A DNA stretch of 62,323 nucleotides, counting the filler, from Aduncisulcus paluster (taxonomy: Eukaryota): NCBI GenBank assembly GCA_024181965.1. It is 4 parts of 4 records of this genome, joined end to end, with 100 filler letters (N's around TTAATTAATTAA, not from the genome) between each part and the next. Parts side by side here need not be neighbours in the genome. Positions count along the whole stretch, not along the records: positions 32,209 to 62,323 come from BQXS01009963.1; 3 more parts are not named here. One strand, written 5' to 3'. Positions 2,434 to 56,154 of this stretch are shown here, piece after piece (within the stretch, counting starts at the first letter, position 1; every line of letters begins with the position of its first letter). The notes under the pieces were generated by a model. That model made no database searches and had not been told where the DNA came from. It worked only from the letters and a program-made list of their open reading frames with translations. The translations under genes were made by a program, and so were the position numbers.

Positions 2434-3158
2434 ATGCCCGCCAAGAAATTTGACCCCAATGAGGAGACTATTGGTATGTAATTTTATTTTGTATATTATT
2501 TGCGTTTTCCATTGATTTGTTTGGAACGACGCTTTATAGATATATAGGGAATGAAAATATTTATTTTTTATTGTTAATTCATATTATAATATAGTATACC
2601 TTGTCGTCAAGGGAGGAAAGCCCCCAGCTTCTCAGGTTTTAGCCCCTAAGGTTGGTCGTTTGGGTGTTAACCCCAACGCCATCGCTAAGCAGGTTGCTGC
2701 TGAGACCCAAGGGTGGAAAGGTCTCACTGTTACTGTTGAACTTAAGATCAAATGTCGTAAGGCTACCATGAACGTGGTTCCTTCCACTGCTGGTCTTGTT
2801 ATCTCCCGTATCAAAGAAGGAGCTCGTACTAAGGGTATGTTTTTTTAGATTATATTTAACTTTAGTTGTTTTTGTTGTTTAATTCGTCGTGTTAATTTAT
2901 TTATATTTTTTTTCAAAATGATTATGATTTTTAGACACTCCCCACGCTGGTCCCATCGCCTGGTCCGATGTTGTCGATATTGCTCGTGGTCTCCTTGAGA
3001 AGAACAAGACTCTTTCCAAGGATGTTGCCGCCGCTTGCCGTGAGGTCATTGGTACTGTTCGTTCTGTTGGTGGTCATATCGAATACGAAGGAGAGGCCAT
3101 CAGCTGTGAAGAGATGACCGAGATGATCAAAGACAAGAAGGTTCCCATTGCCGAATAA
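2434..3158 (+). CDS. RPL12: 60S ribosomal protein L12 (uL11); exons 2434-2473, 2595-2834, 2935-3158 (167 aa)
   Basis: Spliced translation MPAKKFDPNEETIVYLVVKGG...LAPKVGRLGVNP...WKGLTVTVELKI...VVPSTAGLVI...EVIGTVRSVG matches eukaryotic uL11. Two GTATGT...TAG introns (121 and 100 nt) keep the frame. Confidence 0.95.
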
Positions 3159-13546: not shown

Positions 13547-13812
13547 TTTTAGGTTTCTACCCAACAAAGCGGGAAGAATTTTAAAATTTTTAAAGCTGAG
13601 AGGAATCGCACTTTTCTAGAACATAATCAAATAAAAATTTCACCTGCTAAATTGATAATGATTTCTATGTTCCAATATCTGGACACTATATCGAAATTAT
13701 GTTTTCGTCTCAAATAACCCCTTTGTTGAAAACTAAGAATATTATCAATATAATATTTTTGATTTATATTCTTTGTTAAATCGTTTTAACTTCTCTACAA
13801 TATTTTTTTCAA

Positions 13813-16425
13813 ATGAATTTGTTAACACCCAACAAAAATGACCATCAAAACGAGAAGGACACAAGAAAAGAGGAGCATGAGACAATATCTTCACTCAGAG
13901 TCGTTTTTATTTGCCCTGAGAAAGAGGTGAAACTTATTGAAACTGTTAAAAAGGTGTCAGATGTAGTTGTTTATCCTCCTGGAAAAGATTCTTCTCTTCC
14001 AGAGAAGTTTGGAATATACATATTTTATGAATCTGTAATTATCCACAAATATTCAGGTCGTAATGCTGTTGAGCGTTTCTCTGTTGAGTTTCCGCAATTC
14101 TCCAAGAGATTTGAGTTGGCTTTCGCTCAGAAGGACATCAATAACAAAATGAGTTCTTCAAGTGCTTGTAAACATCTTTCTGCTTTTGAAAAGTATAAAT
14201 ATACCGATATTTGCAGATATCTTGATCATGATCAGATAGGAAAAGATGATGTTCATGTTCTTGTTTTCCTGCATTCTTCAAACCCTATTGAATCTCATTT
14301 GTTCTGTTCTTTGAGTAGTGATATTTTTCATGCAAGGAAACCGGCATTGGAATGTTATTTTGTTGATCTCGATACGAACCTGTTTGTGAGTTTCCTATCT
14401 CGACATGTCGATACTTCATGCATTCAAATGGTTCGATATTCCCCAAAGAAAGAGCATTTTAAAATCTCTATTCCAATTGATAGCTTTTCTGAGGAATTTA
14501 CCCTTGATGAGTCCGGTGTGTCAGAATTGAAGGCAACACTTGGAATTGTTGATAGAATTCATCAGGCGGAAGAAGAAAGCGAAGAAGAGAGGCGACAAGA
14601 GAAGGAAAGACTTGAAATGGCAAGAAAAGTCGAGGAAGAGCGTCTGAGACTTATGAAGAAAGAGAAGGAAAAGAAATATCAGGAACGTCAAGAAGAAGCT
14701 CGAGTTGCTATGGAACAGCGGAAAAAAGAAGAATTAGAAAGAATAGAGGCTGAGAAAGCTAAGCAAGTTGAGGAGGAAGAAAAGATAAAGATCCCATCAC
14801 AAAATAATCCATCTGCTTCTGTAAATTCGAGTTTATGCCAATCTGACAAAAATTCTTCAGTTAGCTCTCTCCCTATGAAAGATGCTTCTATGAAAGAATC
14901 TGAGGTCCCCATTGTCATTTCTAAACCCCCTCAAGATATCCTTAAACATCAGACACCACAAACTGTCTTTGAGGAAAAGGTCAACAAAAGTCAAGAGGAG
15001 TCGGTTATATTGGATTCGGATAAACATCATGATACTCTGAAAGACGGCAAATCTGTGGATTTGTCTACAGTGGATCAGTTAAAAATGGTTCGTGAGAAGA
15101 TAAATCAACTTGAACGTCTAATGCAGTCTTCATCCATCATTGGAGAGAGCTCATCAAATTCTTTCCAACTGGCGGATCTTTCGTCCAAATTGAGTGCAAA
15201 AATGGAGAAAGAGCTCTCTTCTGTCCTTTCCAAACACAAGACTATTTCTGAATTACTACGATCCAATGAAGAGAGAAAGACTGTGGAGAGTTCTATTTTA
15301 AGCCGTTGTGAGAAACTAGAAGGTGCTATAAAACATCTCGAGGATGCTTTTGAGGTTGAGAAGAAGCGTGACATGGAAGAGAGTTCGGATTTTAGGCTAC
15401 ACTCCGATCTTACCACAAGTGTTGGGGACAGAGTCTCCATTCTTGAGAAACATGTTCAGATTCTATTGATGCGCTCCGACCCTCTCTTTCCAATATCCTC
15501 TTGTCACCGATTACTTGTCGATTCTGTGTCTCGATCCTCCAAAGTATCGTTGCGCTTTAATTGGAAAACTTTCTCCCATCTTCCGGCCTGTCTTGATTAT
15601 GTGACAGGGTTGTATGTCAAGAAATCATCTTCGGGGGCTAAGTTTGCACCAATTCCTCTCTTATCGTCTAATTCTCACATCGACTTGACATTTTCTTCTG
15701 TCTATCAATCGTCCATCGCCTCTCAGGACTGTCAGAATGATTGTGTAATACCTTGTGCACAGTGGGACATGTCTTTGTCTGGATCTTTGAGCTCTCTCCC
15801 CACTCCAACCGTATCATTCCCTCACATTCCACATGAGGCAGACATGTGCCCATTTGCTCCGATTCCGAGTCATTATTCTTCAATCGGATGTTGGAGTGGG
15901 GCCTCAAAGCGTCGTGGAGATTTTGTTACTATCGTTTTCCCTCGGCCAACTGCTATATGTGCTGTTTTGACAGCTGGACGCCCTTCATATGACCAGTGGG
16001 TACGTGCATTTAGCTTATGGTCTTTTGATGGGAGTTCGATGCAATGGAGCCCTCTCAATAGGGCACATGTGTGTGATCAGACTCCTTGTTCATCCCAAGC
16101 ATCTCCTTCTGGCATTAACAACCCAATTCCTGCCAAGAATAGTCAGCTTTCACCCACACTTCGAACTCCAACATCTCTCTATTCAAAATCAAGAAAGGTT
16201 AGCCGGGCTCAGAGTCCTGCTTTTTGCAAGTCTGTCAAACACCGCAAAAGTGTGTCTCAAAGACAAGTTGTGAGGCATCCGGCAATATTCACTGCTAATT
16301 CTGATCGGAACTCACTTGTTTTGAATGTTTTGACAGAACCAGTTGTGGTGCATAAGATTCGAATTAGAGTTGAAGAATATGAGAATTGGCCATCAATGAG
16401 ATTTGAATTATTTGGATGGTATTAA
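13813..16425 (+). CDS. Coiled-coil protein with C-terminal F5/8 type C (discoidin/FA58C) domain
   Basis: 870-aa ORF. C-terminal CWSG...FVTIVFPRPTAICAVLTAGR..YDQWVRAF...FTANSDRNSLV...PVVVHKIRI...SMRFELFG is the FA58C pattern, interrupted by a low-complexity insert. Confidence 0.78.
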   Translation: MNLLTPNKNDHQNEKDTRKEEHETISSLRVVFICPEKEVKLIETVKKVSDVVVYPPGKDSSLPEKFGIYIFYESVIIHKYSGRNAVERFSVEFPQFSKRFELAFAQKDINNKMSSSSACKHLSAFEKYKYTDICRYLDHDQIGKDDVHVLVFLHSSNPIESHLFCSLSSDIFHARKPALECYFVDLDTNLFVSFLSRHVDTSCIQMVRYSPKKEHFKISIPIDSFSEEFTLDESGVSELKATLGIVDRIHQAEEESEEERRQEKERLEMARKVEEERLRLMKKEKEKKYQERQEEARVAMEQRKKEELERIEAEKAKQVEEEEKIKIPSQNNPSASVNSSLCQSDKNSSVSSLPMKDASMKESEVPIVISKPPQDILKHQTPQTVFEEKVNKSQEESVILDSDKHHDTLKDGKSVDLSTVDQLKMVREKINQLERLMQSSSIIGESSSNSFQLADLSSKLSAKMEKELSSVLSKHKTISELLRSNEERKTVESSILSRCEKLEGAIKHLEDAFEVEKKRDMEESSDFRLHSDLTTSVGDRVSILEKHVQILLMRSDPLFPISSCHRLLVDSVSRSSKVSLRFNWKTFSHLPACLDYVTGLYVKKSSSGAKFAPIPLLSSNSHIDLTFSSVYQSSIASQDCQNDCVIPCAQWDMSLSGSLSSLPTPTVSFPHIPHEADMCPFAPIPSHYSSIGCWSGASKRRGDFVTIVFPRPTAICAVLTAGRPSYDQWVRAFSLWSFDGSSMQWSPLNRAHVCDQTPCSSQASPSGINNPIPAKNSQLSPTLRTPTSLYSKSRKVSRAQSPAFCKSVKHRKSVSQRQVVRHPAIFTANSDRNSLVLNVLTEPVVVHKIRIRVEEYENWPSMRFELFGWY

Positions 16426-41827: not shown

Positions 41828-44800
41828 TTATTTCAGCTCCTCGAAGGCACCCTCAAGATGTCTACGCAGAGTCTTAAGACCCGCTTTCAGCTCATCATCA
41901 TCAATGAGTTGTTCAATGCACTTGTTAAGTTGGAATGCCATAGAAATAAGGTTGCTGTGATCCCTTCTTTTTGCCGCACTCTCACGAACCATAAAGTCCT
42001 TTTCATCGAGTTTAAGCCCAATGGAAACAACAACGAATGCAGAAATGAGCGAGAATACACGATATACACTCTCGGAAGCCGTGTCACGAACGCCACTCTT
42101 TGCCAAGCTCTGCAAACGACGGATAGAAGCCTTCACTCCACTCTCCACACCACGGGTAACAGAGCAACCACACACATACACACACCCGCGAAGAATTCCC
42201 TCGAGAATATTATAAAGAGGGATCAACCTCCGTTCAGAATCACGCACACGGCGAATGACATTATGAATCCTCCTTCCACACTCTCCATATTTTGTGATAC
42301 TGTCCTCCTTGGATTCCTGGAGAACGTACTTATCACATTCACTAATGATGTAATCAACAGGGAGTAAGTGGGTAAACATAAGAGTTTTGGAAGACGATTG
42401 AGGCAAGTGGAGCACAAGGTAAGGATAGAACTGGTCAAACAGACGGTACATGAAGAAGAGCACATCCTCAACAGCATCACAACATGGGATAGTATCCATT
42501 TTATGTTCAATGTACATGCGCCACGAGGAACGAATCAGTTTTAGTTTCTCAGATCTATTCTGGGCATCGGAGAGAAGTTCTTCTTCCGAGATAGTTTTGT
42601 ACTTCTTTGTTCTCATCTGATCTTCCTCCATATCTTCGCCTAAATGAGTGAGCATCATCAACGCAGAGGCATCAAATCCGTCAGTCGTGGATGCAAGGGA
42701 ATGAGCAGTTCCGGAAGGTTCCAACATTCGAGTGATTGCAGAGGAACCACCATCCCTCATACAAGAGTTGATAAATGCCCCGTCAACCATTCCACAGACA
42801 AAGACGCATGCGAGAAGATGCTCGTATTCGAGTGTTCTATAACAGATATCAGCCAGGAAGGAAGGGGGCAGTGGAAGTTTGTTAAGAAGAAGCAGCAGCG
42901 AAGATGACATAAATATAGAAGCATTCATCTTGCAGAATAAATCATGTTGAACCTCAGCACAAGCACTTACGTTGTACATATGAACACGAAGCTTACGCAT
43001 CTCGTCAGACTCGGTCTCTACACAACTTCCAACCGTAATAGAAGTCCCCATTCCAACACGATGCACGTGGGAAGACATACGTAATGTCGATGACAACCGG
43101 GATGTTTTCTCATCATACACAGCCCACTCTCTCTCACCATACTCAAGCATGTACTGGACAAGTTGAAGGAGAATATAACGTTGCTCAATAGAAGATGGGA
43201 TGCAAGCACCGGCAACAATGTTCGCACTAGCAAGATTACGACGGATTTGTTGAAGAGAACCCTTGAATGGCTCATCTGAGGAGTAGTCGGCACTAATGAC
43301 CACTCTTTCACTTTCATTTCCGTGTTTTGTTTGCTTCGTTTTCTTCCCATGACAACATTCTTCCTCCTCCTCCTCATCTTTTGCACTCAAATCAGCATCA
43401 CCCCCCCCGAATCCAATGTCTTCTTCCTCTTCCTCTACATCTTCGAGAGACATTCCGAACCAATCCAACAAATATGTTAAGATAGAAATGTCACATTCAG
43501 TGAAAAAGGTGCTAACACTGTTCTCAATAGCATTGTTGACAGCTCTTTCTGTCTCTAATTCGATCTCCTCAGTATGTTTCTGTGTCAATAGAGGGGAAGA
43601 GAAGGATTTTCCTTGCACAACATTGTCTGATACGCTGAGACCATTCAACAGAGAGTGACCACATAGTTCCACACACAAGCTAGCCTGACTTTCCTCTTCT
43701 TTGCCCCATATGCACTTCAAGAGAAGCTCCAAACTCTCCTTGAAACGCCCAGATCGCCAGAGACATACACACAAAGTGAATAAGGAGCAAGCAGAAGATA
43801 CAGTCTCTGGGAATGAGCTCAACAAAGCCGAAGAAGAGATGTTAGAGAGGTAAATATCGTGGGCAAGATACTCGGCGACGGAAGAATGGGTCATGAGTCC
43901 CTCGCAGATACCCAATAGACACTCCTCCTCAATCCCACATTCAACAAGGGCAAGATGGTGGAATGGACATTCAGATGAACACAACGAAGCAGCGAACAGA
44001 GCCTTAATCTCTCCAACGCCAGACTGATGCTTCCTTTCCATCAAAGACGGATGTCTCATTAACATATATCCAATAACGGACACAACACCAGGGCGAGAGA
44101 AATACTGCGTAAGAAAGGGAGCTGGAGTATCATCTCCTTCTCCCTCTTCCTCGACTTCATTTTTACCCAAAGAAGATCCGGAAAAACGAGAGGCTGGCTC
44201 AAATATAGCAGTTCGAAGCTCATCGTGAAAATCACTAACAGAGGGTGAGGAAACAGAGGGCGATGAATGAGAGGAATGAGAAGAAGACGAAAATAGATCG
44301 GTTGTGGAAGGTTTCTGTGACTTCTTGGGAGAAAGAGACAAATTAACACTTTCTGATTGAGCCTTAGAAATATCTTTTTCGACAGCCAATCCTTCATTTT
44401 TCAGCACATCGAGAGCAATCTTGATAGCAAAATGAACTAACAATTCCCACTGTCCACTCTTCTTCTTCATAGACACATCTTCTGAGGCAGCGAGAGGAGA
44501 TTCACTGTGCCTCCGTTTGTCAGTCCCCTCTTCCCCTTCTCCGTGATCTTCATCCTCAGACTCAGAATGCAAAGAACTAAGGAATTCCTCCTCTTTCTTC
44601 CTCTCCTTGGCTTCGTTTTCCCTAGAAGTCTTCTCAGAAATTATGACATTCAAAGCCTGGTGCAACAGAACAGAGCAACCAAGACTGCATATCCTGGCAT
44701 CTCTCAGGGCCCGGTGCGAGTATCCAAACACCGCAGCCTTCTCAAAGTCATAGACAAGCGAGATAATCAGTGGGAGCAGACAAGGAAGAGACATCATCGG

Positions 44801-47800
44801 AGGGACATAACCCCGGAGAGCGCCTCGAGATGGTTCCTCCTCTTCTTCATCTTCATCACCAGTTCCCTCTTTGTGCAGATGTGGCAGAGATTCGGGGATA
44901 CAGAGAGTCTCAAGGAGAGATATAACCTCCTCAATGTCCTGTTCTCTTTTATAACGCAGATTTGTAGCACATCTAAAGAGAGATATGACGGTCATGAGCT
45001 CTGAGGGGAATAGGAAGCATGAGTCTGCACTTCGATGGAGGTGAGAACGAAGAGATATCATGTCACGTACAGCNNNNNNNNNNNNNNNNNNNNAATCAGT
45101 GGGAGCAGACAAGGAAGAGACATCATCGGAGGGACATAACCCCGGAGAGCGCCTCGAGATGGTTCCTCCTCTTCTTCATCTTCATCACCAGTTCCCTCTT
45201 TGTGCAGATGTGGCAGAGATTCGGGGATACAGAGAGTCTCAAGGAGAGATATAACCTCCTCAATGTCCTGTTCTCTTTTATAACGCAGATTTGTAGCACA
45301 TCTAAAGAGAGATATGACGGTCATGAGCTCTGAGGGGAATAGGAAGCATGAGTCTGCACTTCGATGGAGGTGAGAACGAAGAGATATCATGTCACGTACA
45401 GCTTCTTCAACATATTTCGAACATAAGACCATAGTAGACGGAAGGGTCGGCATCTCGAGAGACACAGTGGAACAGGCACATATGGTTTCCTTAATCATAG
45501 AGTCGAACATCATCGGGGCAACTTCACTGAGACCATAGTCAATAAGAGACATATGCCGAATGATCCTTCCTTTCCCCTCATCGGGATCAGTAACCATAAC
45601 AGAACGTCCATAGAGGATGTACCACATAACATCATGTCCAGATACCATAATCCCCTGATGAGCAACCGGAAGACCGGCTGTGGCCGACACACCATCAATC
45701 AGGTTGTGAACAAGACCATGTGTGACGAAGCACTTGGCAATACGTTGTAGCAAGTGACATAGAGCGAGGAGGGACAAGTGGGTGAGAGGACGAGGATATA
45801 TAGGTTTGAAGGCAGACTCGGAACCAAAGGAAGAGGGGGAAGATGCAGTCATCGAAGTCACAGAAGAAGCAAATGGGAACCCAAACTCAGACAAAAAGGC
45901 CAATATGTTACACAGACGACTTGAAATAACATTAGAATCACCCAACTCAAGGGATTCTACCACCGGTATATCAAGGAGAGACAACAAATCACGGACGACA
46001 GCGCAGGAAGCGTCGATAACATAAGTCTCGCTGGAAAGATTCAAATAATGGCATACCTGATCGGTGACATGACCATACAGAGTCGATGAACTAGAGATTG
46101 GCATGGCATATGCATATTTGGAGTCAATAGTGGAGGATAGACGACCAGAGAGTGACATATGACCGAAAACACGGACAATAAACTCAAGGGCTGAAGCGTA
46201 TGATGCTCTGAGATGACCTTTTGAGGAAGTTCTTTGGATATGTTTCCCAGATCCCCCAGACCTCACAGACTCAGCTCCAGTGATACTATACTGTCCAGAC
46301 TCTGTGTACGATTGCGAGTGTTCCTCTGAGAAGTCGTGATCCTTCGAGATACTGTCACCAGAGTCCCTGTCGAAGCTTTCGTGCTCACTCATTCCAATGG
46401 CATCATATGAGGAACTTCTGTGAATATGACTTTCACTACTCTTTCTTCCTTTTCCAAATGGACCCATCATGTACCTTTCGACAGCAATAGGTCTCTCCAT
46501 GATCCACCACAAGAGTTCCTCACAGCATGTCCGTGGTCCCCACACATTACACACGAAGATACAGAGACGCAGCATCGAAGGAGGGAGTAAAGAAGTCAAG
46601 GAAGCAGTGGAACTAGAGCTGCCAGAGCCAGTGGAGGCACGAGAAGTGCCAGAAGGAGACAGTAAGGGAGGCAAAAGAGCAGCGGAAGGAGAGTGTGGGT
46701 CACACAGAGCTTCTACACTCAAGTATTTGTCACACAAGTCAAGGGAAAGATACTTATAACTGGAAGAATCATCACAAGGGCTCTTACGGAGTTCTTTGGG
46801 CCGCTTAAAGTCACCGTGGCGACCACGCCGTCCATTCCAGACGTAACTAAACAGGACCCTAGGTTGACATGAGGTGAATACATGAATGCGAGAAGATACA
46901 ATACATGCTATCCTGGCCGGATGAGTGCTCCCAAAGAAATTATTGGAGGTTTCCGAGATGGAGAAAGGAAGGAAGAGGGAGGGTTTTGATGAAGATAGAG
47001 GTTTGACGTGGACTTCTTCAACGNNNNNNNNNNNNNNNNNNNNCCATTCCAGACGTAACTAAACAGGACCCTAGGTTGACATGAGGTGAATACATGAATG
47101 CGAGAAGATACAATACATGCTATCCTGGCCGGATGAGTGCTCCCAAAGAAATTATTGGAGGTTTCCGAGATGGAGAAAGGAAGGAAGAGGGAGGGTTTTG
47201 ATGAAGATAGAGGTTTGACGTGGACTTCTTCAACGAAAGGTGGCAGTTCACCAGAGTCACCGTCAACTGTGATCATATCTTCCTTCAATTTATCCTTCTC
47301 ACCAACCATTCCAACCCTACTCCTTATAAAGGCTTCTCCAGGACGATCTACCACTTCCTCTTCCTCCTCTTCCTCCTCCTCCGATGATTCGGAACGATCA
47401 GAATCGAGATCTTTCCTCTCCCGACAAGTTGATCCTCTTTTCCTCCGTATAGATAGCACATTGAATTCCTTCAAAACAAGGTAGTCTGAGGAGACACACA
47501 TGAACACGGTGTCTCTAGAGCAACACACATCGTGTACAGTGAATTGAAAGGGAGGAAGAAGGGCAGGAAGGGTGACACAACCACATGGGCTGGGCCAAAC
47601 AGGCACATGAGAAGGAGGGAAGGTTGTTGTTGGATATAACAGAGAAGTTGAGGGTCGAAAAAGACCAGAGGAATAACAACCTTCCAAAGGATTTGCATGA
47701 AGTATTTGATCAGGGTTCTTAAACCGGAGAGTGAGAGGAATCCTTGTACCGTCAGTGAGAACACACATTCCTACGATAGTCCCGTATAAATGTGGGATGG

Positions 47801-49229
47801 AACAGGGATAAAAGAATGCCGGAACAGGGATTGGAGTATGAACTAACTCTTTTTCAAGTTTAGCGAGTTCAGCAGGATCACCCTCAACCTCCTCGAGCAT
47901 AATCTTCTTGATATCATCCACACTAAATTCCTTCACCTCTTTGCCACCTTCCATTGGTCGCTCCAGGGCCAAACTGCCGGCGAAACACAGGCTTTCTCCG
48001 GTGTGGACGAACAAACGAGTGACTTTCGCTTTGCATCCATCTGGAGCATCGGCGGGAGGGTAGAATGAAGAGACAGGATTGCTGTTATAGTGGTAACAGG
48101 CAAGCATCGATGGAGACTTCGAGAATACCCAAATAAGCCGGTTAACAGAATCACAATAGACTTTACGACCATCACTGCGACGAAAAGCTGCCGAGAGATG
48201 TCTTTGCAGGAATAAACGATCAACAAAGCGAATATGGCCATCACAAACTTTTCGAATAACTTTTTTGTTCAAATAATTAAGAATTCCACGAACTATTCGG
48301 TCGAGTAATCCGAGAGCCTTGGCTTCCTTATATGATTCAAAATCTCTCTCTTTAATAATAGAAATCACTTCAGAAGCACTCAAGGTACCGTGAACTTCCT
48401 TCATTGATTCGGAAACCATGCGTAAAAAGCCATAAGATGTTTGTCCGGTGAATGGTGGGAATGTCTTCCCATCAATTAAACTTGGAGTTTTTAGATGCTC
48501 AAAATGGTTAATCCAAGCAAGTTCAACATCAATAAGATACAATAAACTCCCAGAATCATTTGTTGTCGCGAATACAATAGAATCCATAGTAGCAAATGAG
48601 GAGACCACAACAGGAGACTTCACAGATATGGAATGTTCTTCCGCAATCATTTGTGAAATAGGTTGCCCTTCAGATTTGTTTGCAGGAATGAAATGAATGG
48701 ACGAAGAAGTTGCGACAACTATCACATACCGGTAATCAGTTTTAAAATATGACAAAAACAATTTTCTAATTCGTTTAGATGCTTCTACAATTGTACATTG
48801 AGTAATAATATCTTGGCAGCCTCCATAAAGGACAAAAGAAGAATCTCTTCTATTATGGGGGAATAAGGCAAGTTGAGTATCAAAAGAGAACCATAAACAC
48901 TCTAATTTTGGTAAAGAACCAGCATATGCTTTTAACTGAACGTTTGAAAGGTATCCCGAGAGTGCAGCTGGAATTGGTTGTGAATCATCAATGGTTTCCA
49001 AAACTGTGTGGTTGAATTCATATTGTTGTTTGAAAATCACCCCTGGGGTTTTAGGATAACTATTATTATCAAGACTAAGTAGCTTAGAAAGAGGAATAGA
49101 TTCATTCTTATCTCCGAATTCTTTCAATAGATGTTCGGCAACAATTTTAGTCCCTTCAACATCCTTTTCAGGTGGTAACGGATGACTTAGTTCATGTAAT
49201 AATTCTTTAAGATTTCTTCTATCCGACAT
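41828..49229 (-). CDS. NUP155: Nucleoporin Nup155/Nup170 homolog (about 2286 aa once two gap-flanking duplications are collapsed)
   Basis: N-terminal IPAALSGYL...AYAGSLPKLECLWFSFDTQLALF...FVLYGGCQDIITQCTIV...YVIVVATSSSIHFI resembles the start of the Nup155 beta-propeller. 7402-329-212=6861 nt, a single frame joining ORFs 46908-49229, 45058-46737 and 41828-45112. Confidence 0.72.
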
Positions 49230-49389
49230 TACTGCGAAAAGCCTAGTCTTGCATCTAAACGCTGCTATTCACCTGCAATAGCTCAAATTTATTAATGCAC
49301 ATTCTCAACAATATCAATTTCATAAAATGAAACCATTTAATAAATTTATTCTAAAAAAGAAGGTGACGAATGCAACAATTTTCGTTGAA

Positions 49390-50148
49390 TCACTTCTTAA
49401 ATGCTGAAAGAGCCCGTAAATCAAGCATAATAGCATTGGAACTTTGATAATATCCAACATCATCCTGATAATCCCTTATATCGCTCTTTGTGAATGGTAT
49501 TTCGTGCGAAACACTTTCATAATATCTAATCGCTTCTTCTATAAGGATATCCCGCATTTCATTATATTCTTTTTCGTATTCAACTTCTGTTTTATCTTCT
49601 ACCCTTCTTTCAGATAAGTATTCTTTCACATCTGTTCCGTGAAGTTCACCTTTCTCTTTCATTCCAGAAAACATTTGAGGAAGCCCTGGTGCCGCCGCTG
49701 TACCACCCATTCTCTGCATCATACCTGCCTTATGACCCATGGTTCCGGCTGAATGATCCTCCAATCTTTTGCGAACATGATCATCCCTACCCCCGCCACC
49801 ACGTTCATCTCTATATTTTTCACGCATTCTTTCATCATGATCAACAGTGGCATCAATATCAAAAATTGGTTCAGACGTGTTCTTGGTGAAAAAGATGGTT
49901 TGATTTGGAGCTGGTATGAGTTTTGCAAGTATTTTAGACCCTTCTTCAACAACTCCCGTAAGAACAGGATGTTTTAAATCTGTTTTATATAAAATTAAGT
50001 CATAAAATCCATCTCCAAGCCCCAATTTCTCTGCTATGGCTTCCTTGAGCTCAGCCAAAGATAGTGACTTCCTTCCATATTTTAATATAATTTCTTGATT
50101 GGGTTTTGACTCTATCCATGATGTTTGTCTAAAGGATATTTTCCCCAT
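49390..50148 (-). CDS. DWNN (ubiquitin-like) domain protein, RBBP6/Mpe1-like N-terminus
   Basis: MGKISFRQTS...SLSLAELKEAIAEKLGLG...DLILY...VEEGSKILAKLIPA follows the DWNN pattern. First plausible ATG at 50148. No zinc knuckle or RING. Confidence 0.62.
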   Translation of the reverse strand: MGKISFRQTSWIESKPNQEIILKYGRKSLSLAELKEAIAEKLGLGDGFYDLILYKTDLKHPVLTGVVEEGSKILAKLIPAPNQTIFFTKNTSEPIFDIDATVDHDERMREKYRDERGGGGRDDHVRKRLEDHSAGTMGHKAGMMQRMGGTAAAPGLPQMFSGMKEKGELHGTDVKEYLSERRVEDKTEVEYEKEYNEMRDILIEEAIRYYESVSHEIPFTKSDIRDYQDDVGYYQSSNAIMLDLRALSAFKK

Positions 50149-50289
50149 TAGCGCCCAAACTTGGATTTTTATTATATAGCAGTTATGCATCCATCCCATT
50201 TAATATGATCCGTATTATTCAAAATAATATCATATTTATTTAAGATTTATGAGAATATACTGGTTGAAACATGTTTGGTTTGGATTACA

Positions 50290-50726
50290 CACATTCCCCC
50301 CGTCACGGAGCTGGCAAAACGGTTTTGCCTCTAAGCTGATTTCTGAGGCTAAAACAAGATGTGGTCCAGATGTGGAAATAGTTCTATGCATTGGTGATGC
50401 ATCTTTTTCCGCGAGTGGAAGGGGACACTCGTCAAGTCATGGGGTATCAACTTCCTTATCAATTTGTTTGATCATGTTTTTGTTCCCGAATTCCGTACAT
50501 CTAAACTTTCTTTTTGCTGTCATTCAAATACCAGCAGTGTATTCGGAATACAGTATTCCACGAAGGAAAGCTCATGCCACGTCTCAGACAATGCACAAAA
50601 TGCCACAGGATATGCAATAGAGATATCAATGCTGCACTAAACATTGCTTTCCTCGAAAAATTTGTGGCTACATCTTCTTGGGAGGAAAGACCAGTTCAGT
50701 TTAAAAGAGAAACAAGGAAAGAGTAA
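50290..50726 (+). pseudogene. Fanzor1/TnpB-family RNA-guided nuclease remnant (C-terminal RuvC-II, zinc finger, RuvC-III), 5'-truncated, two frameshifts
   Basis: Three successive frames give ...IVLCIGDASFSASGRGHSSSHG / INFLINLFDHVFVPEFRTSKLSFCCHS / ...RLRQCTKCHRICNRDINAALNIAFL......ERPVQFKRE*. The 5' boundary is approximate. Confidence 0.85.
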
Positions 50727-51401
50727 TCTATGCTTTTTATGTTTTTATGTTTTTATTTGTATTTTTAATTTCTTTTGGTTCTTTTTTATCTTTGACTCTT
50801 CTGTTTTTCTGTTGCATTTCTGGATGTTTTTCTATCAGAATCATCCTGGTTTTTACTTTTATTTCTTCCTCTATTTTGGTTTTTTCTATGAAGCATTTAC
50901 TTTTCACCTCCTATGTTATGACTTTCGAGCTGTAATATTTGGCGGAGCTGTGCGTTTTATACTGTCTCTTCTTATAAAGCACAATTGAAAATAAATATCC
51001 TTTTGGGTTTTTGCATAAAATACAATTTCTAAGGCTGCTCTTGAAAGCAATATTATTGCAGTATCGAATTTGCCTCACCTCCACACCTGCTTTTGTCACT
51101 TCTTGAGAGTATTATTCAAGGATATTTTTATAAAAACCTCTATTTTTAATACCAAATTGCCTTTTTGACAGCAATAGATGAAAAAACAAGATAATCATAA
51201 TGAGATTAGTGAAGTGATTTCACAGCCCTCATTATTTCTTAAAAAGAAAGGGAGCGATGATATCTCTCTCTTGAAATCTCAAATATCTGAGTTAAAGGAA
51301 CAAATTTTAAAATTATTATTTACCCTTTTTTTAATCTTGTCACCCCTTGCGAAATTATTATTATGAATCTATTTTCCATTTCTCTCTGATTATATGATAG
51401 A

Positions 51402-54400
51402 ATGTCAAACAAAATATATTCATTGAGGAAGTTTTATCTACTTCTACGAGATAATTTCTATTCCTATGGATTAGATAGTAGATTTTTGTATGTATGCATT
51501 TTGTGCCTATTTTTCGAATATTTTGACCGATTTTCATATGTATATTGTAGATTTACTGATCTTTTATGATGATTGTATCATCTTTCAGAATGTATTCTTC
51601 AATTATTCCTCTTTTTCTATTTGGTGTCATATATGGAATATCCCTTGGATATTCTTCGAATATTAGTGAATCATCAAACTTTTACTACATTTCTACCTTC
51701 TATTTTTTCTGTCTTTCTTTATGCTCCCTCACCCATACAAAAGCTGAGCTCTCTGATCGTTCCACCGATTATTATTCATCATATATTGTCAAAAACAATG
51801 TATTTATTTTCTATTTATGCCGAATATTATCTTCATTTGTTTTCACCGTCCCTTGTTTGTTGTTCTTCATCATCACAACTCTCGGTGCCCTTAGTTCCAT
51901 TTCAATAGTCCATCGATTGACTCTTTCCTTCATCATATTATGCTCACATCTGTCATCTTTTATAATATATTGTTCATTATCACTAATAATTGTTAGGAGA
52001 TTAGCTAGAAACCATTCCAAAGCTTTAAATATTACTTCCCACCAGTTCCATCTTTTCTTCAGCAATGGCGAGAAATTCAAGCTGGATTCTTTCTCATTTT
52101 TGCTCGTTATTCTTGTTTTCTCCATGTGGATCATTGTGTCTCAGTGCACTGTGGATTGGTTAGACATTGCTTACATTCCTGCTTCGATATGTATTCTTCA
52201 ATTATTCCTCTTTTTCTATTTGGTGTCATATATGGAATATCCCTTGGATATTCTTCGAATATTAGTGAATCATCAAACTTTTACTACATTTCTACCTTCT
52301 ATTTTTTCTGTCTTTCTTTATGCTCCCTCACCCATACAAAAGCTGAGCTCTCTGATCGTTCCACCGATTATTATTCATCATATATTGTCAAAAACAATGT
52401 ATTTATTTTCTATTTATGCCGAATATTATCTTCATTTGTTTTCACCGTCCCTTGTTTGTTGTTCTTCATCATCACAACTCTCGGTGCCCTTAGTTCCATT
52501 TCAATAGTCCATCGATTGACTCTTTCCTTCATCATATTATGCTCACATCTGTCATCTTTTATAATATATTGTTCATTATCACTAATAATTGTTAGGAGAT
52601 TAGCTAGAAACCATTCCAAAGCTTTAAATATTACTTCCCACCAGTTCCATCTTTTCTTCAGCAATGGCGAGAAATTCAAGCTGGATTCTTTCTCATTTTT
52701 GCTCGTTATTCTTGTTTTCTCCATGTGGATCATTGTGTCTCAGTGCACTGTGGATTGGTTAGACATTGCTTACATTCCTGCTTCGATATGTATTCTTCTG
52801 TCGATTATATTCCCACCTATCCTGCTATCTTCTGCATTAAAATACATATTATCCTCACAATATGCCACAGATACGTGGATATTGTTCCGGCATGCAGATG
52901 TTGTGTCATTGTCTCCATCGCTTGTGTGTTTTTGGTCTGTTTTGGGCTTCATTTTATCTGTTATATGGTTCGTTGTTGCATGTAAAAGGGCAAAGAAGTT
53001 AAAATCTTCTAAAGATACCACTCTTAAAATTGGTAAGAATTGGAAGCAAATTCTACATCAGAAAGAAGATGTGCTTCATCGTCGTCTTGATAAATATGAA
53101 AAATATCTTCATAAGGCTGTTCAAATCAATACAAAGAAGAAAACAATGGACTCCCCATCACTTTTGCTGCCAAGTTTCTCCTATGCTTCAAGCAATCCGT
53201 ACTCTCCAATCGACCTTCTTCTCTATCTAAAGCGTATCATTATCATCCTTGACAATCTAAAAATGTCTGAATCCGTGCGATCAGAGTCATATATGGAAGC
53301 GTACCAACTATCAATTAAGATGAAAGAGGCTCTGGGGGTGTACAGCTCTGTCTTCATGAAGGATAAACCAGCATTCGAAGTTGGTGTGGATTCTGAACCA
53401 GCTCATGATAATCAACAAGAAGAAGGATCAATGGTTCAACAAAGACCAATGCCATCAAACATTACCCCTTTCCTTGGGTTTCCATATGATATTCCCATCT
53501 CAGCTGTATCACGAGTCATTTCATTCTTTGAATCCCTTGTTCATGGCATGAGCGATGAAAGTTTGATTGTTGTGGGCTTTCCTGCTTCTTTTCTTGGATC
53601 TCTCCTCCTTCCTTCCTCGAGTGAAAAAATGAATGCCATGTGTCCGCATATCTGTGGCTCCATTATGGATATTTCAATCAGAAGACCTCCAAGATTCAAC
53701 TTTACTTTGATGAGTAATCGGATCTTTAGATCTTTCTTTAACACTTCGATTCTAACTCAAGCTAGGCTGCTGGAAAGAAGAGGAATGGGTTGTGCAGAAG
53801 AATCCTCAAAATTAGTGAAAATGAGGAAGAAAGATCCCCATTCTAAAATAAGTTCCTCAAAAATTCACATTTCCAAAGAAAAAACAAAGAAAAAGAAGCA
53901 AACAGGTCTTGGCCTTTTCTCGAGAGGTAAGGAATCACCGATAAATTTACATTTTGTCACAGATAATATCCCGAAAGAACAAGAACCATTGCCTTCCTCG
54001 GGATCAGATTTGTTAACAATCAAGAGTATGATTAGTGACAAGGTGAAATTGAAGGAAAAACAAATGTTGGTCCAAAAAGCAAAAACATTGAAAAAAATCA
54101 GGAAAAAAGAAGACCAATTAAAGAAACAAAAGTCTGAAATGTCGATTATATTCCCACCTATNNNNNNNNNNNNNNNNNNNNCTAAAATAAGTTCCTCAAA
54201 AATTCACATTTCCAAAGAAAAAACAAAGAAAAAGAAGCAAACAGGTCTTGGCCTTTTCTCGAGAGGTAAGGAATCACCGATAAATTTACATTTTGTCACA
54301 GATAATATCCCGAAAGAACAAGAACCATTGCCTTCCTCGGGATCAGATTTGTTCACAATCAAGAGTATGATTAGTGACAAGGTGAAATTGAAGGAAAAAC

Positions 54401-56154
54401 AAATGTTGGTCCAAAAAGCAAAAACATTGAAAAAAATCAGGAAAAAAGAAGACCAATTAAAGAAACAAAAGTCTGAAATTAATATGACATCAGTCAAACA
54501 ACCATCCCCATCTTCCTCTGTGTCTTCCACGTCTTCTGTTTCCTCTACAAGTAGCAGTGATATGCCTCCATTCCCATCATTCGTCTCACATCTCAGTGTT
54601 TTCCCCTCCATTTTACTTGTTCGTCGCGGAAGGATAACCTGTTTCATGTGTATGGATTCCTATAGTGCTGCCAATATCCTCTATATGTTCTCACACCAGG
54701 GTATCGATGGTTCCGAAACGAGACGCAAGGCAGCCGTATCCATGTTCATAACGAGTGTACACGATTCTGATGTTCAATTAAGCAAGAATAAGAGATCTCA
54801 CAAGAAAGTCAAAGCAGCGAGGAAGAATTTATTTTCTTTTGTCAGAGATGAAACGTTATCATCATATTCAACGTTGTTTCAGGACGTAACGATATTACCT
54901 TTCGAAACCTACACAAAATATACATTTCCTGTTGTTATTGCGGGTTTCCATCCCCACACCACTCCACAATTGACATTATTCCATAATATGGTGTTTTACT
55001 TGGAATTCTTTGGGTTTTCAAGGAAAAAACCAAGCGAATATGATAAAAGGGGTGTGACAACTGCTGAAAAATTCGACAGTTTAAAAGAACGAAAGAGAAA
55101 AGCCAAGCAAGCAATTTTGTCAATCGAGAAGTTGTCTTCGATTGCATCCACCAGTGTGAATGCAAGATCAGTTGTGGCAAACATCCTTTTACATTTTTCC
55201 TTCGAAATATATGCGTACTTACCTATTCATTTTGTTCCAGATCACATTGTAAGGATGTGTATCGCATTGTGTTTGTTGGTTTCCGATCGTGAAATGATCG
55301 TACTTGATCTTCCCTTGTTGGGGCTGAACGATATGCTCCGTAAAAAGTTCCTTAGAGTGTGTGTTTTTCTTCAGGAGTTACAAACTCTTCCTTATTTCCT
55401 GAGTACATCGTTTGATTCAACTTCTACATTAAAATTACTACGTAAACTTAAAGAAATAGTTTCCATTGTGGATTCTCGATTGTCTGATGACACAAAGAAG
55501 TTTTCAACCCCTCAACAAGTTATTGATATTCTCATTTCACATGAAGATTTTCTTTTATTCGCATGTCTTATCCAAAGATCTTTACTTTGTGCACCTTATC
55601 AATTGAAGAAAACAATAATATTTGTCGGAACAATGAAAGATGATTTTGGGGGAATAGCGGATGAGTATTTTGTTGTAAAACAGAATGTCATTGTCGCAGC
55701 AGGTCCTATTTCCAAGATTAAACAACTTAAATATATAATTTCGATTGATTTTGGAATATATCCCGAAAGAATTCAAAAGGGGGATAATATTCAAGATATC
55801 ATTTTTAAAGCATTTAAAAGGCTCAAAGAACACATTCCAAAAGTAATTATGGAATCATACCGCAATCAAACATTGCAGTTGTCCCTTCCCGTTCATGAAG
55901 ATGAGATTTTATTAGTTCTTGTGAATATTCTCGACTCTGAACGAAAAAAAGACCAGAGAGAAGTTAAAGAATACGTTAGAGGTGGTCCATCAAGTGTTAC
56001 AAGAGAAGAAGGCGATGCGACAAGGATTCATGAGAGAGATATTGAGGCTGGCTTCGATCGAGAATCAAATCGAATTACCTCTGGAAAGAAATGGTTCATT
56101 AGGAAATATAGCATCGATTTGCAGTCAAGATTTCCCATATTTAACTCAAAATAA
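51402..56154 (+). CDS. ABCA-like half transporter with degenerate NBD; exon 1 51402-51487, intron 51488-51588, exon 2 interrupted by duplications (about 1237 aa corrected)
   Basis: GTATGT...TACTGAT...CAG phase-2 intron joins in frame. Multi-TM N-terminus. NBD-like blocks VRRGRITCFMC, LTLFHNMVFYLEFFG, RMCIALCLLVSDREMIVLDLPLLGLNDMLRKKF and KTIIFVGTMKDD...ADEYFVV....IVAAGPISKIK. Confidence 0.7.
51590..52798. repeat. 599-bp tandem duplication without N gap, bounded by 11-bp microhomology ATGTATTCTTC
   Basis: 51590-52199 matches 52189-52798. It causes a frameshift between ORFs 51566-52507 and 52126-56154. Confidence 0.9.

Follow-up and report, generated by a model that had tools for sequence, protein, structure and literature searches.

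A truncated, frameshifted Fanzor1-type nuclease remnant in an intergenic spacer of a gene-dense eukaryotic scaffold

The locus, its reading frames and its frameshifts

The window, that is, the whole stretch of 62,323 nucleotides that we analysed, is a eukaryotic scaffold rich in AT (38.6% GC) and dense in genes, and it contains N runs. The remnant described here occupies positions 50330-50726 on the plus strand, inside a spacer of about 1 kb that separates two host genes. The left host gene lies on the minus strand with its ATG at about 50148, plus-strand ORFs lie on the other side of the spacer, and the first aligned codon of the remnant lies only about 180 bp from the start of this neighbouring gene. 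The features of the locus, with positions in a Fanzor1 profile described below, are as follows.

50149-50329, no strand: AT-rich upstream spacer, from the start of the left host gene to the first profile-aligned codon
50330-50411, plus strand: frame A piece, a helix and the RuvC-II strand region (SKLISEAKTRCGPDVEIVLCIGD..), Fanzor1 profile 514-536
50396-50444, plus strand: region of the first -1 shift, from frame A into frame B, best placed at about 50404-50412, at or after a five-T run
50413-50523, plus strand: frame B piece, KSWGINFLINLF.. and then the alternative Glu in EFRTSK, Fanzor1 profile 563-595
50523-50591, plus strand: region of the second -1 shift, from frame B into frame C, a variable linker between the halves of the zinc finger
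50592-50726, plus strand: frame C piece with the second CxxC, RuvC-III, the tail and a stop, Fanzor1 profile 607-654 of 656
50727-51177, no strand: T-rich downstream spacer, the expected site of a guide RNA or right end, none of which is recognisable

An earlier note on this DNA, made from the sequence alone, had quoted three peptides as parts of one hidden nuclease. All three were found at the places it gave, on the plus strand and in three collinear frames: frame A (50228-50620) includes ..VEIVLCIGD.., frame B (50398-50640) includes ..FDHVFVPEFRTSKLSFCCHS.. and frame C (50505-50726) includes ..RQCTKCHRICNRDINAALNI...ERPVQFKRETRKE, followed by a stop. The Gly at 50393-50395 in frame A and the Glu at 50488-50490 in frame B also stand where the note had placed them. 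This Gly occupies the canonical RuvC-II Glu position and aligns with the invariant G546 of alignment A1, which holds 18 of the 19 Fanzor1 proteins used below. Frame B has a KG.G..L-like block ahead of the alternative catalytic Glu, which aligns with the invariant E582 of A1, six residues before the S/C position of the zinc finger. In the first zinc-finger pair, decay has left SxxC (Ser 50509-50511, Cys 50518-50520), where relatives have an invariant Cys at both positions (C589 and C592 of A1), and a complete CxxC...CxxC finger is absent. The second CxxC is intact, reads CTKC (Cys 50592-50594 and 50601-50603) and is followed at CTKC-x6-D spacing by the superfamily's RuvC-III motif, NRDINAALNI, with its Asp at 50622-50624. 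The C-terminal tail, ERPVQF, begins at 50685 and the stop codon lies at 50724-50726. Among the 98,318 translated residues of the window, EFRTS and RD.NAA.N appear only once each, 34 codons apart and on one strand. The preserved part amounts to about 140 residues, the last fifth, corresponding to about 140 of the roughly 656 profile positions.

The frames are joined by two -1 shifts. The earlier note had put the first in the GGGG run at 50441-50444, which is probably not its site: when ten relatives were aligned in a frameshift-aware manner, five of the six spanning alignments placed the shift at 50410-50413. Profile scores did not discriminate between the two placements (45.0 versus 44.8 bits). 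The second shift fell anywhere from 50541 to 50616 depending on the relative, and frame C is required by the Cys at 50592-50594. An intron was also considered at the first shift; the only nearby GT..AG candidates measure 7 and 22 nt, and neither has the needed phase.

The gene is truncated as well. The 510 N-terminal positions of the 656-position Fanzor1 profile had no match upstream or elsewhere among the 2368 six-frame pieces of the window, and by the same comparison (next piece at E 0.64) RuvC-I, which reads DPG in Fanzors, and the WED and REC parts are absent from the whole window. The 5' truncation point lies within 50149-50329. The locus thus holds no intact ORF, being interrupted by two -1 frameshifts and truncated at its 5' end, and it is unable to make a nuclease because the upstream part is lost, the frame is broken twice and a Cys of the first zinc pair has become Ser. 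Decay is nevertheless incomplete, since the frames used are free of stop codons and the GC content of the remnant (41.9%) is similar to that of local coding DNA, as against 27.7% (50149-50289) and 30.2% in the flanks. Its composition is still short of that of the flanking spacers.

We found this sequence unchanged in contigs of two runs, X1 and X2, which belong to one sample that may be the assembly's own source and so are not biologically independent. A 3592-nt contig of run X1 spans 49900-50945 with no differences or gaps, at a depth of 1272 that equals that of neighbouring contigs, and runs on into the left host gene. From run X2, a 671-nt contig spans 50275-50945 with no differences. Both frameshifts, the two 1-nt indels that the earlier note had proposed to check in raw reads, are unchanged in the contigs of both runs. 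Because the same sequence is present in both, an error of the assembly consensus or a chimeric join is excluded, and the note's own refuting case of a chimeric or contaminant insertion is argued against by these identical contigs, joined as they are to a host gene. Run X2 is only guessed to be RNA; it leaves 50146-50268 uncovered, and neither its contig nor this gap was counted as evidence of expression.

Short pieces of the locus recur in other contigs of the same sample. Positions 50324-50367 (44 nt, in the remnant) recur with 2 mismatches (42 of 44 bases) in a 757-nt contig, 50891-50945 (55 nt, in the downstream spacer) with 1 mismatch in a 3038-nt contig, and a 2210-nt contig repeats about 185 nt at 50916-51100 with roughly 92% identity. 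Such pieces may be additional fragments, or else a dispersed repeat.

Intact Fanzor1 elements encode the guide (omega) RNA at their own 3' end. The nuclease binds this RNA and cuts guide-matched DNA with a single RuvC site made of the RuvC-I Asp, the relocated Glu before the zinc finger and the RuvC-III Asp. No guide-RNA structure stood out 3' of the remnant: the fold of 50640-50950 had z = +0.99, and 81 of 100 shuffles folded as well. Rfam gave no match in the downstream spacer and no tRNA or Rfam family across the window. The locus has no convincing inverted repeats, only weak short ones, and there was no transposase among 51 short ORFs taken from the spacers, that of the remnant included. 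Searches with blastn and tblastn found no second copy in the 62-kb window.

Relatives and profile comparisons

Frame C alone is recognisable in curated libraries. It matched Pfam PF07282 (Cas12f1-like TNB) at E 1.7e-5, its 25.3 bits falling one bit short of the curated cut-off of 26.3, and PHROG 506 'transposase' with E 4e-5. In NCBIfam, all four matches were to C-terminal ends, namely those of guided_TnpB (356-387 of 389), IS607_TnpB, IS200_TnpB and Cas12f2. The three independent libraries therefore agree in pointing to the C-terminal model positions of the TnpB superfamily. Frames A and B, taken singly, had no match in Pfam, NCBIfam, PHROGs or PDB, and the best PDB match of frame C was a weak one to the TnpB-like 'Transposase' 8hr5 (E 0.53). 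Single-sequence comparisons yielded no relatives: phmmer with frames B and C alone recovered none of the solved Fanzor1 proteins, word-based homologue searches with frames C and B gave no match, and when frame C was compared exhaustively with 1.84 billion representatives by phmmer, the two proteins found at E <= 1e-3 were both tandem-repeat artefacts. Judging by the protein searches run, no close relative of the remnant appears to be known.

Relatives were then sought in the viral contig collection with degenerate DNA patterns back-translated from motifs of the window. The EFRTSKxCxxC pattern retrieved 118 viral stretches, with giant-virus MAG names in 46 of 80 among the matches listed, and the corresponding ORFs were mostly 600-700 aa long. 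None of the 118 viral ORFs was flagged by a regular expression for the full E-x6-CxxC...CxxC...D motif, since most of them lack the second CxxC. The DINAALNI pattern found mostly phage TnpBs in viral contigs, and NRDINAALNI a single stretch, again a phage TnpB. A locus search based on frame C confirmed none of three pattern matches in viral contigs and four of 122 in metagenome contigs; these four, three ordinary TnpBs and one 207-aa mini TnpB-like ORF, included none close to the remnant.

From 19 non-redundant viral or giant-virus proteins we built a local HMM of 656 positions, the Fanzor1 profile, and ran it with filters off against the 2368 six-frame pieces of the window. The only significant pieces were frames C (E 3.5e-6, free of circularity) and B (E 2.8e-5, partly circular because the relatives had been fetched with a pattern derived from frame B), the next best piece having E 0.64. 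The Parasitella Fanzor1, which lies outside the pattern selection, carries the same EFRTS letters. Frame A alone was not significant (-1.7 bits, E 74); its support comes from the collinear alignment to profile positions 514-536 and from its Gly, which falls on the one that is invariant in the family. When the frames were read through with an X at each break, the remnant aligned as one domain to positions 514-654 of 656 with 45.0 bits (E 5e-13 for 2368 pieces), so that the stitched peptide passes the profile check that the earlier note had proposed.

The proteins behind this profile are Fanzor1. When compared with solved structures, alignment A1 matched the Fanzor1 of Parasitella (7e-90), Spizellomyces (7e-87) and Guillardia (1.5e-49), and neither a TnpB nor a Fanzor2. 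The remnant itself is about 30% identical to viral Fanzor1. The central claim of the earlier note, a Fanzor1-type remnant spread over three frames without RuvC-I and the N-terminal lobes, is thus supported by the 45-bit match and by the agreement of the source proteins with solved Fanzor1.

Rearranged active sites are not confined to Fanzor1, and we compared the remnant with a second alignment, A2, of phage TnpBs that share the Gly and alternative Glu. Against the 19-sequence rearranged-TnpB profile, the read-through scored 15.5 bits over 29 residues, compared with 45 bits over 130 residues for Fanzor1. It reached 34.9 bits against a phage TnpB profile selected on the window's own DINAALNI motif, a profile that we set aside as circular for that motif. 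The A2 profile matched ISDra2 TnpB, mimivirus L79 (Fanzor2) and Cas12f and no Fanzor1; since A1 matches only solved Fanzor1 and A2 matches none, the two profiles separate the groups. The excess of the Fanzor1 score holds over the two groups scored, TnpB and rearranged TnpB.

We placed the remnant in a maximum-likelihood tree built from 62 C-terminal segments, where it joined the 19 Fanzor1 sequences (98/87) and lay outside their own clade (98/94), on a long branch (2.25) for which the tool warns of long-branch joins. All scripted Fanzor1 in the comparison sets come from giant-virus or other viral contigs, and the tree includes neither cellular Fanzor1 nor Fanzor2.

The C-terminus offers further signs. 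A terminal RPxx(x)F/Y motif is present in 16 of 19 Fanzor1 sequences, in none of 19 rearranged TnpBs and in none of 26 TnpBs, and the RPxxF tail is also visible in the alignments to Spizellomyces and Parasitella Fanzor1. The KG.G..L block before the Glu matches Fanzor1 only. The six residues between the second CxxC and the RuvC-III Asp, on the other hand, are more TnpB-like than the spacing in most of the viral Fanzor1 retrieved.

Fanzors are reported to carry Gly or Pro at the canonical RuvC-II Glu and an alternative Glu about 45 residues on (PMC10530073), six residues ahead of the zinc finger (PMC10711439), and a site with Gly and alternative Glu is also found in a subset of TnpBs and in Fanzor2 (PMC10530073, PMC10711439). 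The remnant has the rearranged site of Fanzors (Gly 50393-50395 and Glu 50488-50490), a site common to some TnpBs. The earlier note had taken this arrangement as typical of Fanzor1; the arrangement stands, its specificity does not, as both papers extend it to a TnpB subset and to Fanzors generally (PMC10530073, PMC10711439). Because it is not specific, the assignment to Fanzor1 is based on how the profiles score, where the tree places the remnant and the presence of the RPxxF tail. The hallmark of Fanzor1 named in PMC10711439, a REC2 pair of kinked helices together with REC1 insertions, would lie in the REC1/REC2-coding part, which is absent from the locus.

The closest known system is Fanzor1, a group of eukaryotic and giant-virus TnpB homologues with solved examples from Spizellomyces punctatus (Fz1, 8gkh), Parasitella parasitica (Fz1, 9cf0) and Guillardia theta (Fz1, 9cer). 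The remnant shares with these proteins the order and letters of the C-terminal module: Gly stands where RuvC-II once had its Glu, a KG.G..L block is present, the relocated Glu belongs to an E(F/Y)(R/K)TS motif and precedes the zinc finger by six residues, RuvC-III reads NRD.NA..N, and the chain ends in an RPxxF(S/K)R tail. Unlike them, it consists of the last fifth or so, broken by two frameshifts, with SxxC as its first Cys pair and a shorter gap from the second CxxC to RuvC-III, and it lacks the RuvC-I DPG, WED, REC and a recognisable guide RNA or inverted repeats. TnpB2/pro-Fanzor and Fanzor2 (mimivirus L79, 9b0l) resemble it in the Gly at RuvC-II, the alternative Glu, CxxC-x6-D and D.NAA.NI; they differ in having neither the RPxxF tail (0 of 19) nor the KG.G..L block, and only 29 residues align (15.5 bits).

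A parallel exists in Spizellomyces punctatus, for which PMC10432273 describes 42 loci with full-length (19) or partial Fz genes, beside ghost loci that encode no protein. The same source already describes partial Fanzor copies as common in host genomes (PMC10432273). The remnant resembles these partial loci, as described there, in being a truncated, non-coding copy of a Fanzor gene in host DNA (PMC10432273), and differs from them in being single in 62 kb and in having no recognisable ends.

Origin and standing of the remnant

We consider it very probable that a pseudogene lies here between host genes, in which the 3'-terminal fifth of a Fanzor1-type nuclease gene remains, about 140 codons out of about 650. 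A Fanzor1-bearing mobile element, or viral DNA carrying one, would once have inserted here, and most of the inserted element would later have been deleted. What survives in this copy is half a zinc finger together with two catalytic residues, the relocated Glu and the RuvC-III Asp; with WED, REC and RuvC-I lost from it, it is a dead relic and not a working system.

Whether the element arrived as a cellular transposon or in viral DNA is not settled by the data, because the relatives fetched are all viral. That the remnant is an endogenised fragment of giant-virus DNA and never belonged to a cellular transposon seems to us unlikely, even though every Fanzor1 relative retrieved by pattern is viral, giant-virus MAGs make up 46 of 80 among the matches listed, and PMC10432273 reports Fanzor1 from viruses of eukaryotes, especially giant viruses. 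The viral picture was forced by sampling, as viral and metagenome collections were what was scanned; moreover, the remnant lies outside the clade of all 19 viral sequences (98/94) instead of being nested in it, its identity to them is only about 30%, and no other virus-like gene was found when 74 ORF translations (23 ORFs of at least 62 aa and 51 short spacer ORFs) were compared with Pfam. Less probable still is that a Fanzor2, or a TnpB of prokaryotes or phages with a rearranged site, was the source, acquired by horizontal transfer or from an associated bacterium. The Gly and alternative Glu do occur in a TnpB subset and Fanzor2, according to PMC10530073 and PMC10711439, and in the A2 phage TnpBs, TnpB typically shows the CxxC-x6-D spacing and the DINAALNI letters, and the comparison sets contain no Fanzor2 sequence. 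However, the rearranged-TnpB profile accounts for 29 residues and 15.5 bits where Fanzor1 accounts for 130 residues and 45 bits, the RPxxF tail and KG.G..L block match Fanzor1 only, and the tree puts the remnant with Fanzor1 (98/87). The profiles can also tell the groups apart, given that A2 finds L79 and ISDra2 TnpB and no Fanzor1.

We regard it as very improbable that the locus is alive, either because the frameshifts are read errors or are bypassed, giving a short C-terminal protein, or because it serves as a ghost guide-RNA locus for a Fanzor1 encoded elsewhere. Such a view could draw on the stop-free frames and coding-like GC, on the recurrence of 50324-50367, 50891-50945 and 50916-51100 in other contigs of the sample, and on the ghost loci (guide RNA, no Fanzor gene) described for Spizellomyces in PMC10432273. 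Against it, the contigs of the two runs agree on both shifts, the first shift has no intron whose size and phase would fit, and the frame-restored ORF starts no earlier than 50228, still without RuvC-I, WED and REC. The downstream fold (z +0.99) is no better than shuffles, inverted repeats are missing, and no relative of frame C is on record as a possible intact partner. Chance resemblance in AT-rich spacer DNA has a negligible probability in our view: the motifs are individually short and frame A alone is not significant, but two adjacent, collinear pieces are the sole significant matches among 2368, independent curated libraries give the same superfamily at the same C-terminal model positions, and EFRTS and RD.NAA.N, unique in the window, lie 34 codons apart on the same strand.

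The preferred reading, a Fanzor1-type pseudogene, fits what is reported of the family. Fanzor1 is described in PMC10432273 as widespread in fungi and present also in protists, arthropods, plants and giant viruses. With this range and the partial copies of Spizellomyces as described there, Fanzor1 debris is to be expected in a protist-like genome (PMC10432273). We found nothing relevant in the literature on Fanzor in Apicomplexa or Alveolata, and the host group may already appear in the supplementary host tables of the published Fanzor studies. An improbable and bolder picture would make the host a compact-genome eukaryote without sequenced close relatives, in line with the orphan 881-aa ORF described below, and the remnant the first Fanzor1 trace of its lineage. 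At its boldest it would have intact copies elsewhere and the fragment as a ghost guide-RNA locus able to program them, short pieces of which do recur in other contigs of the sample.

The finding is an ordinary one, a dead and newly found addition to the known Fanzor1 family. The remnant records the past entry of a Fanzor1-bearing element and adds a host data point for the spread of eukaryotic RNA-guided nucleases. By itself an inactive relic, it is a concrete probe for intact copies in the full assembly, and its interest grows only if the host lineage has no known Fanzors and intact, guide-bearing copies turn up.

Further observations in the window and in retrieved sequences

Two sets of TnpB-like proteins emerged among the retrieved sequences. 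The IMG/VR loci L006, L010, L015 and many others belong to a large family of near-identical 431-aa phage TnpB-like proteins, mostly from one metagenome, which read E-E-S-Y-T-S-K-C before RuvC-III and lack the cysteine pairs of the zinc finger. The 207-aa mini TnpB-like ORF (L316:530-1150, plus strand) lies on a metagenome contig of 26% GC and has RuvC-I-like, Glu-before-Cys and RuvC-III motifs in under half the usual length.

Several other features of the window concern its genes. A Pfam domain was found in 7 of the 22 scanned ORFs of at least 200 aa, and an 881-aa ORF (13780-16425, plus strand) had only itself as homologue among 7999 scored candidates in 5.8 billion proteins; this orphan and the Pfam rate point to a lineage with very divergent proteins. 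The conserved proteins CK2 alpha, eS12 and uL11, compared with PDB, had no decisive nearest group. On the minus strand at 41828-49268, three overlapping long ORFs (1115, 666 and 786 aa) are parted only by the 20-N runs at 45074-45093 and 47024-47043 and probably belong to a single very large gene that the scaffold gaps interrupt. Pfam gave no match in the 1115-aa and 786-aa ends and none at E <= 1e-5 in the 666-aa middle.

Sequence duplications were also present. Positions 51590-52199 and 52189-52798 form a perfect 610-bp direct duplication (100% identity, period 599) in ORFs starting at 51560 and 52009; it arose by tandem duplication in recent time, or else the assembly has introduced it as an artefact. 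A 339-bp tandem repeat (53842-54479, 1.9 copies, 93% match) lies in a 1381-aa ORF and spans the N run at 54162-54181, both sides of this scaffold gap carrying duplicated sequence. The gene for ribosomal uL11 (L12), on the plus strand, is divided between two frames at 2555-2845 and 2928-3155 and adjoins the eS12 gene (1521-1970) on the opposite, minus strand. The division of uL11 implies a short intron, so that the genome would be intron-poor and not intron-free.
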